64,000 bases of DNA, from positions 8,726-72,725 of the forward strand of contig CACVAW010000010.1 in NCBI GenBank assembly GCA_902727925.1, read 5' to 3'. Under the pieces are notes generated by a model, which was not told the origin of the DNA, searched no databases, and saw nothing but the letters and a program-made list of their open reading frames with translations. Origin of the DNA: an uncultured Campylobacterales bacterium. Its GTDB lineage: Bacteria > Campylobacterota > Campylobacteria > Campylobacterales > CACVAW01. The position numbers and the translations under genes were made by a program. This document shows, one piece after another, positions 10,711-11,450 of this stretch; position 1 is the stretch's first letter, and the number at the start of each line of letters is the position of its first letter.

Positions 10711-10786
10711 TAAAAGGAGCAAAGCTCCGCGAACCGTCCGTTGAGGACAGCATTTTGGAATTCACTTCCAAAATAGCGTATAAAAA
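10711..10786 (+). promoter_or_regulatory. Structured intercistronic RNA element, copy A (three hairpins) between rpsL and rpsG
   Basis: H1 is GGAGC-AAA-GCTCC (10716-10728). H2 is GTCC-GTTGA-GGAC (10736-10748). H3 is ATTTTGGAA-TTCAC-TTCCAAAAT (10752-10774). By my ungapped hand alignment, 63 of 76 positions are identical to copy B. Confidence 0.6.
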
Positions 10787-10797
10787 GGAAATAAACA

Positions 10798-11271
10798 ATG
10801 AGAAGAAGAAGAGCTCCCGTAAGAGAAGTATTAGCTGATCCAATATTCAAAAGTAAAACTGTAAGTAAATTTATAAATTCATTAATGCAAGATGGTAAAA
10901 AAACTACTGCACAAAAAATATTCTATGATGCGATGCAAAGTATCGATAATAAAAAAGATATTGAAGAAAGTGGTTTTAATGTATTTGAAAAAGCAATCGA
11001 AAACATAAGACCTGTAATGGAAATCAAAAGTAGACGTGTAGGTGGTGCTACTTACCAAGTGCCTATAGAAGTAAGACCTGTAAGACAACAATCACTTGCT
11101 ATTAGATGGATAATCAACTTTGCTAGAAAAAGAAGTGAAAAAAATATGAAAGATAGACTTGCTAACGAGCTTGTAGATGCTGCAAACCTTAGAGGTGCTT
11201 CATATAAAAAGAAAGAAGATACTTACAAAATGGCTGAAGCAAACAAAGCATTTGCTCACTATAGATGGTAA
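10798..11271 (+). CDS. rpsG: 30S ribosomal protein S7
   Basis: 157 aa, [17 protein letters not shown]...[13 protein letters not shown]...AFAHYRW. Confidence 0.96.
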
Positions 11272-11375
11272 GACTCGTAGAAAAACAATAATTTCTTATT
11301 ATTTTTCCGAGTCGCACCAAGTTGTGATGTGCGAAGCACCACTACTTGGAACACATATAATTTGGACGTCCTCAC

Positions 11376-11450
11376 TAAAAGGAGCAAAGCTCCGTGAGCC
11401 GTCCGCTGAGGACAGAATCTAGGAATTTACTTCCTAGTATTCGTATAAAA
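11376..11450 (+). promoter_or_regulatory. Structured intercistronic RNA element, copy B, between rpsG and fusA
   Basis: H1 is GGAGC-AAA-GCTCC (11381-11393). H2 is GTCC-GCTGA-GGAC (11401-11413). H3 is CTAGGAA-TTTAC-TTCCTAG (11419-11437). Two base pairs in H3 differ from copy A in a compensatory way. Confidence 0.6.

Follow-up and report, generated by a model that had tools for sequence, protein, structure and literature searches.

A duplicated three-hairpin element in both spacers of the rpsL-rpsG-fusA operon of an uncultured Campylobacterales bacterium, a candidate ribosomal protein operator

Why should the same structured segment stand in both spacers of a ribosomal protein operon? The question is raised by a metagenome-assembled genome (MAG) of an uncultured Campylobacterales bacterium (assembly GCA_902727925.1), from which we analyzed 64,000 nucleotides of contig CACVAW010000010.1, positions 8,726 to 72,725 (the window). 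The str operon of this genome carries rpsL, rpsG and fusA, which encode ribosomal proteins S12 and S7 (uS7) and elongation factor G (EF-G), and an element with three predicted hairpins, here H1, H2 and H3, occurs once in the rpsL-rpsG spacer and once in the rpsG-fusA spacer. An original prediction, made without database searches, had interpreted it as an RNA structure under selection with a role in ribosomal protein feedback or in processing. Structure-preserving evolution and the restriction of the element to the str operon within the window stood up to analysis, whereas its conservation in orthologous operons did not. At a probability of roughly 0.35, we favor the reading that the element is a translational operator for a ribosomal protein, with uS7 the prime candidate, acting on rpsG and on an fusA that is no longer coupled to it.

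The two copies are close relatives in sequence. Copy A (10711–10791, plus strand) lies in the rpsL-rpsG spacer and copy B (11376–11456, plus strand) in the rpsG-fusA spacer, in the same orientation and 665 nt apart. They were found as an ungapped repeat of 81 nt with 83% identity, and there are exactly 13 differences between the 76-nt cores, which agrees with the 63 identical positions of 76 counted by hand in the original prediction. In copy A, H1 spans 10716–10728, H2 10736–10748 and H3 10750–10777, followed by the 10-nt tail CGUAUAAAAA (10777–10786); the same parts of copy B lie at 11381–11393, 11401–11413, 11415–11442 and 11442–11451 (all plus strand). The H1–H2 half of the element has a GC content of 63%–66%, compared with 31% for the window. 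Copy A was also recovered without a mismatch (100% identity) from Logan assemblies of three independent runs (ERR3801502, ERR3801603 and ERR3801542), and it is therefore not an assembly artifact. Over rpsL and copy A, the contigs concerned (L093, L094 and L095) matched the window at 99.96%–100% identity; all of them end at window positions 11243–11258, before the rpsG stop codon, and this independent confirmation stops short of the spacer that holds copy B.

Folded in isolation, the 76-nt cores gave the same three hairpins, at −23.4 kcal/mol for copy A and −24.3 kcal/mol for copy B (z scores of −4.4 and −3.8). H1 is GGAGC-AAA-GCUCC and H2 is GUCC-GYUGA-GGAC in both copies, and H3 is predicted as a stem of 11 bp with a one-base bulge, closing a UUYAC loop; the position of the bulge shifts by two between copies. 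The three shared hairpins that had been proposed were therefore reproduced in the isolated copies, although H3 is longer than the 7–9 bp given at first and copy B loses H2 when folded in its context. Differences between the copies are concentrated in H3, as had been claimed, with 10 of the 13 in its 28 nt (p = 0.0017); the 21 nt made up of H1 and the stems of H2 have none (p = 0.0095). The tail, H1 and the H3 apex are unchanged. Both of the compensated H3 pairs reported earlier are real (10754/10772, U-A in copy A and C-G in copy B; 10756/10770, U-A and A-U), and the count rises to three with 10751/10776 (C-G and A-U). When ten random substitutions were placed in H3, the hairpin was as stable as that of the other copy in only 0.4%–0.8% of 20,000 trials.

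Since H1, H2, the H3 apex and the tail are frozen while the lower H3 stem keeps its pairing and not its sequence, we think that the structure is probably selected and functional. The pattern fits what would be expected of a protein-recognized RNA in which one helix serves as a spacer, and neither neutral decay nor a single gene-conversion tract would easily produce it. The original prediction had gone further and assigned this selection to RNA. The frozen parts and the pairing-only conservation of H3 are consistent with that assignment, but the reverse strand folds equally well, and the element has no informative G-U pairs, so that its strand is given only by the direction of the operon.

The main competing explanation of the pattern is neutral and gives the element no regulatory role: the hairpin cluster of one spacer would have been copied into the adjacent one, or the element would be a hairpin repeat with few copies, of the repetitive extragenic palindromic (REP) or miniature inverted-repeat transposable element (MITE) type. 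We consider this explanation possible but doubtful. The stems would persist through template switching, and GC-rich stems could mutate more slowly or be homogenized by gene conversion. Folding on both strands is what such a repeat would show, and the sole direct repeat flanking copy A, the near-identical A-rich words TATAAAAGGA and TATAAAAAGGA that bracket it, could be a duplication scar. The distribution of differences points the other way: they should spread evenly in a neutral repeat, and gene conversion would need two separate tracts with the middle left untouched. Terminal inverted repeats were not seen by inspection. The element does share with REP sequences, bacterial interspersed mosaic elements (BIMEs) and MITEs that it is short, intergenic, repeated and hairpin-forming on either strand; it differs in having two copies in 64 kb, within one operon and in one orientation, no terminal inverted repeats, and no relatives in the genomes, plasmids and phages searched.

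Copy number bears directly on this alternative. Searched with up to three mismatches, the words AAGGAGCAAAGCTCCG of H1 and CCGTCCGYTGAGGACAG of H2 occur at two sites only in the window, where 0.27 and 0.03 sites were expected by chance. A covariance model built on the two copies and run with filters off scored 110.5 bits on copy A and 110.2 bits on copy B, and the next best match in the window reached 16 bits. No third copy was found by either approach in these 64 kb of a 163.8-kb contig, a scan that excludes a high-copy repeat family but not a low-copy one. Random insertion twice in the same orientation, 665 nt apart in one operon and nowhere else in 64 kb, would require a large coincidence, and the duplication is most simply explained as local.

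Searches beyond the window gave a similar picture. The H1 and H2 stem pattern had three matches among 185,579 species genomes (a set that does not include the source genome), all in unrelated phyla and at about the number expected by chance, and no match in viral contigs. BLAST of 11360–11520, which covers copy B and the hairpin region downstream, found nothing in plasmids and phages. An origin as a mobile element was rejected on the lack of matches in plasmids, phages and viral contigs, and the possibility left open at first, that the element is a common dispersed repeat, is made unlikely by these results together with the lack of a third copy in 64 kb. No Rfam 15 family matched anywhere in the window at the gathering threshold, including the ribosomal protein leaders with which a comparison had been suggested. 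At E ≤ 10 in positions 9500–12500, matches on the element itself had E-values of 0.75 and 5, far below gathering, and the lowest values in that interval (0.09 and 0.19) were matches of microRNA models to the palindrome upstream of fusA.

How the element is placed differs between the two spacers. The gene rpsL (10294–10668, plus strand) was identified from its open reading frame and translation, and Logan contigs carry the identical protein in the same gene order. Next comes rpsG (10798–11271, plus strand; Pfam Ribosomal_S7, E = 2.6e-61; 100% match to CAA6802769.1), and then fusA (11520–13598, plus strand). These coordinates give spacers of 129 nt and 248 nt, the sizes stated earlier. The tail CGUAUAAAAA of copy A runs into the rpsG Shine-Dalgarno sequence AAGGAAA (10785–10791), 7 nt upstream of the rpsG start codon (ATG at 10798). 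The element had been described as lying immediately 5' of both genes; this is accurate for copy A, which abuts the Shine-Dalgarno sequence, but copy B lies about 70 nt from fusA with a 23-bp hairpin between.

The tail also invites a reading at the level of DNA, in which its TATAAA would serve rpsG and fusA as the −10 box of internal promoters, or the palindromes would act as operators. The word CGTATAAAAA is identical in both copies, and relatives with a long rpsG-fusA spacer, such as L024, appear to have a terminator and a promoter there. As a promoter, the tail fits copy A poorly. Transcription starting about 7 nt past TATAAA would leave a 5' untranslated region of about 6 nt with no Shine-Dalgarno sequence, and a promoter scan flagged neither copy. 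Three different palindromes would, in addition, require three DNA-binding proteins. We rejected the tail as a promoter and find the DNA-level reading as a whole hard to credit.

The purine-rich words of the element raise another alternative, that it is bound by a global RNA-binding regulator such as CsrA, or serves as a stand-by site for ribosomes. CsrA is a regulator of translation in Campylobacterota. Each copy has three or four GGA or AAGGAG motifs, in H1 (AAGGAG), H2 (GAGGAC), H3 (GGAAU) and the Shine-Dalgarno sequence. By inspection, all GGA motifs of the element itself fall in predicted stems, rather than in hairpin loops as is typical of CsrA sites; we regard this explanation as very unlikely.

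Context changes the predicted fold of copy B. Copy A keeps all three hairpins when its surroundings are included. Copy B is preceded by a flank of its own, UGGACGUCCUCAC (11363–11375, plus strand), which is predicted to pair with 11394–11405, stacking an 11-bp extension under H1 and taking the 5' arm of H2. This fold has −31.3 kcal/mol, compared with −24.3 kcal/mol for the isolated copy, and leaves H2 with a pair probability of 0.009. Copy B differs from copy A in the linker at 11395 (C>U) and 11398 (A>G), and each of these substitutions creates a Watson-Crick pair with the flank.

Further hairpins surround copy B. Two of them open the rpsG-fusA spacer in its predicted fold (11272–11313 and 11317–11349, plus strand). 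Downstream, an inverted repeat search and the spacer fold both gave a perfect 23-bp hairpin with a 3-nt loop (11462–11510, plus strand), the longest inverted repeat of the window within a search limited to arms no more than 30 nt apart; the fusA Shine-Dalgarno sequence UAAGGAA (11504–11510) lies in the 3' arm of this hairpin. The inverted repeat search and the sequence also gave a terminator-like 14-bp hairpin followed by six U (11454–11467 with 11481–11494, plus strand), and the two structures are mutually exclusive. Together they could form a switch or a site for RNase III. The competing helices at copy B, with flank and linker set against H2 and the terminator-like hairpin against the one that buries the Shine-Dalgarno sequence, make up a plausible switch in the predicted folds. 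No intrinsic terminator was called within H1–H3 on the plus strand, and H1 was flagged on the minus strand only.

These stable hairpins could instead belong to a module for mRNA processing or stability, in which they would act as entry points for endonucleases or barriers to exonucleases and separate the half-lives of rpsL, rpsG and fusA; the 23-bp duplex could be an RNase III substrate whose cleavage frees the fusA Shine-Dalgarno sequence. RNase III is active in Campylobacter. Hairpins that sequester a Shine-Dalgarno sequence and are opened by RNase III or by translational coupling are known from phage lambda, T7 early mRNAs and E. coli adhE, and the 23-bp hairpin beside copy B resembles them in burying that of fusA. 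The likeness concerns this neighboring hairpin rather than the three-hairpin element, and it is seen here from sequence. Both spacers are dense in stable hairpins that lack U-tracts (the predicted fold of the whole 248-nt spacer has −86.6 kcal/mol), and in L004, the closest relative, hairpins follow rpsG in positions equivalent to the first two despite sequence divergence. Stability, in contrast, needs no conservation of sequence, and H1, H2, the H3 apex and the single-stranded 10-nt tail are identical between copies where the H3 stem has drifted. We consider a processing module an unlikely account of the element.

A coding role for part of copy B was also considered. The public EF-G annotation (CAA6802771.1, 734 amino acids) starts at GTG 11394, inside copy B, and continues in frame through the palindrome. 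This GTG lies 9 nt after the AAGGAG of H1, and its frame is open for 47 codons up to fusA. At the corresponding place copy A has GCG instead of GTG, as well as a stop codon in that frame; a perfect palindrome would encode the additional EF-G residues, and the EF-G of relatives begins with MAR(K/Q)TPL. On these grounds we rejected a coding role, and the annotation is probably an over-extended gene call. Separately, the numbering of protein accessions implies that one further coding sequence is annotated between rpsG and fusA.

We collected 80 further str loci from metagenomes for comparison. The covariance model of the element had no match in L004, L006–L009 and L010–L040, which include all Campylobacterota relatives. 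The expectation that orthologous str operons would carry the element was thus contradicted, which counts against a conserved leader; on the loci compared, it is restricted to the lineage of this MAG. The absence of any homologue, even in the closest relatives, is what a neutral repeat would predict. Those closest by S7 were L004 (86% identical) and L006 (81%), both on tiny contigs, with all others at 78% or less, and no relative with EF-G more than 85% identical was found. Two other candidates were discarded as assembly artifacts: L090 (P0122), closer by bit score, has an 807-amino-acid EF-G with a duplicated C-terminal part and a 13-nt spacer, and L005 is an unrelated high-GC chimera whose S7 has an internal duplication.

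The two nearest loci contain related pieces of the surroundings. The spacers of L004 are 71 and 104 nt long. The first has only AAAATAGCGTA and the Shine-Dalgarno region in common with copy A, and the second matches the window in its two 5' hairpins and in ACATATA, with neither copy B nor the palindrome. From L006, 51 nt upstream of rpsG are available before the contig ends (L006:1–51), and here a 12-bp hairpin, AAUUUCCUUAAU ... AUUAAGGAAAUU, buries the rpsG Shine-Dalgarno sequence, a second likeness to the sequestering hairpins described above. Its outer arms use the same words, UUCCUUAAU and AUUAAGGAA, as the fusA hairpin of the window, and at its apex GGAAUUUAUUCC is similar to the apex of H3.

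What relatives have in place of the element is a different and widely shared structure. In L007–L036, the rpsL-rpsG spacer measures 72–180 nt, except in L024 (16 nt) and L027 (25 nt), and the rpsG-fusA spacer is mostly 9–15 nt long, compared with 248 nt in the window. All 27 relatives with a long rpsL-rpsG spacer have a common motif directly 5' of rpsG. It opens with CAG and a variable hairpin (P1); the invariant UGAGUAAAU stands between P1 and a short hairpin (P2), and GAAG and the Shine-Dalgarno sequence follow. P2 is AAUC..GAUU, which covaries with AAAU..AUUU. A covariance model of this architecture (R2, CAG-P1-UGAGUAAAU-P2-GAUUGAAG), built on 15 loci, recovered 27 of 27 at 36–75 bits, always directly before rpsG (e.g., L033:1416–1495, L017:1045–1117 and L013:1434–1503). 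In the alignment, 94.9% of cells were paired and 79 cells were changed on both sides. None of 500 shuffles reached the observed values, and sliding the partners collapsed the signal. The frequent G-U pairs fix the RNA strand. The motif had no match in Rfam 15, and a text search of Eckert and Weinberg 2020, which lists 20 leader candidates, gave no entry for uS7, Campylobacter or Epsilonproteobacteria. We regard it as a candidate uS7 leader of Campylobacterota, presumably responsive to uS7.

This leader was not found in the window. In the two spacers (135–254 nt of search space), R2 had no match on either copy, and its weak matches away from them scored no more than 4.7 bits in the spacer before rpsG and 6.9 bits in the spacer before fusA, on the palindrome. 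It was likewise not found in L004, L006 (51 nt of upstream sequence), L024 and L027, and among the relatives scanned it was never duplicated before fusA. The leader and copy A share a position directly 5' of rpsG, a CAG before a hairpin, and an A-rich single strand leading into the Shine-Dalgarno sequence. The leader differs in that its invariant UGAGUAAA, AUUGAAG and P2 are missing from the element; nor does it have a counterpart of H1 and H2 or a copy before fusA. A by-eye likeness (CAG before, GNGUA..AAA after) had suggested that H3 and the tail descend from P1 and UGAGUAAA; R2 did not support it, and we rejected this derivation. Because relatives have a different conserved leader at this position, the site before rpsG appears to be regulatory, and the element may be a replacement there.

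Enlarged spacers are not unique to the window. The rpsG-fusA spacer was independently enlarged to 72–208 nt in L011, L024, L027, L031 and L035, where it holds terminator-like hairpins and long AT-rich palindromes, such as ACCTCTTTT..AAAAGAGGT in L031 and L035. In L024 and L027, a shrunken rpsL-rpsG spacer (16–25 nt) goes together with loss of the leader. Unrelated palindromic insertions in these spacers and in that of the window are again compatible with a neutral repeat.

With these comparisons in hand, we return to the operator. Three observations lead to it: the tail of copy A meets the rpsG Shine-Dalgarno sequence, the Campylobacterota leader is missing, and the 248-nt spacer must have ended the coupling between rpsG and fusA that is possible across 12 nt. 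The structured mRNA segment, about 80 nt long and specific to the lineage, would have been duplicated locally and retained in both spacers, while the rpsG-fusA spacer would have grown from about 12 to 248 nt. With that length, fusA would no longer be translationally coupled to rpsG, which would give a rationale for a second copy before fusA. A free ribosomal protein (uS7 is the candidate) in excess of 16S rRNA would bind copy A beside the ribosome-binding site of rpsG. It would also bind copy B and shift the balance among the extended H1, H2 and the structures that bury the fusA Shine-Dalgarno sequence. We infer the transcription of the element with the operon, its selective maintenance, its binding by a protein and the identity of that protein as uS7, and binding by uS7 is purely conjectural. 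A fuller scenario, in which the ancestral leader was discarded for an unrelated three-hairpin uS7 operator that was copied before fusA, once the rpsG-fusA junction had lengthened and coupling was lost, as a structural switch keeping EF-G under uS7 control, seems unlikely.

The operator reading has a precedent in E. coli, where uS7 binds the S12-S7 intercistronic RNA, and such leaders are phylogenetically narrow (PMC10931766, PMC3616713). Within the E. coli str operon, this operator is placed between the genes for S12 and S7 (Saito and Nomura 1994; Fu et al. 2013, PMC3616713), and outside Gammaproteobacteria extended S12-S7 spacers occur with no recognizable structure (Fu et al., PMC3616713). 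The element and the E. coli operator share the operon, the intercistronic position of copy A, a structured RNA at the start of rpsG and a narrow range. They differ in that the E. coli operator is single, compared with the second copy before fusA here, and in that no resemblance to 16S rRNA was detected here; no relationship in sequence or structure between the two could be shown.

Several observations weigh against an operator. The uS7 binding site of 16S rRNA is in the 3' major domain; similarity of the element to E. coli 16S rRNA was no better than that of dinucleotide shuffles (p = 0.37–0.77); one set of alignment parameters gave p = 0.024, at an unrelated region, with the E. coli rRNA serving as a proxy compared in sequence only. 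Mimicry of 16S rRNA at 1265–1365, suggested by collinear words seen by eye, was rejected, as scores were at chance and the best regions shifted with the parameters. There is no homology to the Campylobacterota leader that R2 could detect, and the nearest relatives, L004 and L006, are without H1 and H2. Copy B stands about 70 nt upstream of the fusA start and is predicted to lose H2, and the copies may therefore present different surfaces. The element offers two sequences from a single genome, too few for real covariation statistics, and its reverse strand folds as well as the forward strand; the scan for further copies spans 64 kb of one 163.8-kb contig of the MAG. Finally, compensatory changes in quasi-palindromes can arise by template switching without selection. 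Mönttinen and Löytynoja are said to have described, in PNAS in 2022, how template switching during replication can yield such changes.

Beyond the three genes of the operon, dnaA (13893–15203, plus strand) lies directly downstream of fusA, separated from it by a 15-bp terminator-like hairpin (13611–13645), and no tufA follows fusA. With dnaA directly after fusA and no tufA there, the replication origin region is probably close by. Two other features of the window were noted. A direct repeat of 137 nt with 71% identity links 19300–19491 and 20224–20415, with adjacent 41-nt repeats in the same intervals at a spacing of 924 nt, which suggests tandemly duplicated genes or gene starts. The GroES gene (62445–62741) encodes an unusual Cys-rich C-terminal tail, reminiscent of the metal-binding GroES tails of Helicobacter.

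Structured intercistronic elements occur in ribosomal protein operons, and the element described here is a new, lineage-private case among them. If it is a neutral duplicate, the finding is ordinary. If it is a ribosomal protein operator, it would be a clean natural example of one autoregulatory RNA giving way, in the same place, to another that is unrelated to it, and of the control of a downstream gene being restored by copying the operator after coupling was lost. It would then bear on the speed and the routes by which ribosomal protein feedback evolves, most known leaders being limited to narrow clades (PMC3616713). The Campylobacterota leader is arguably the more valuable result, as a candidate uS7 leader outside Gammaproteobacteria, in the phylum of Campylobacter and Helicobacter.

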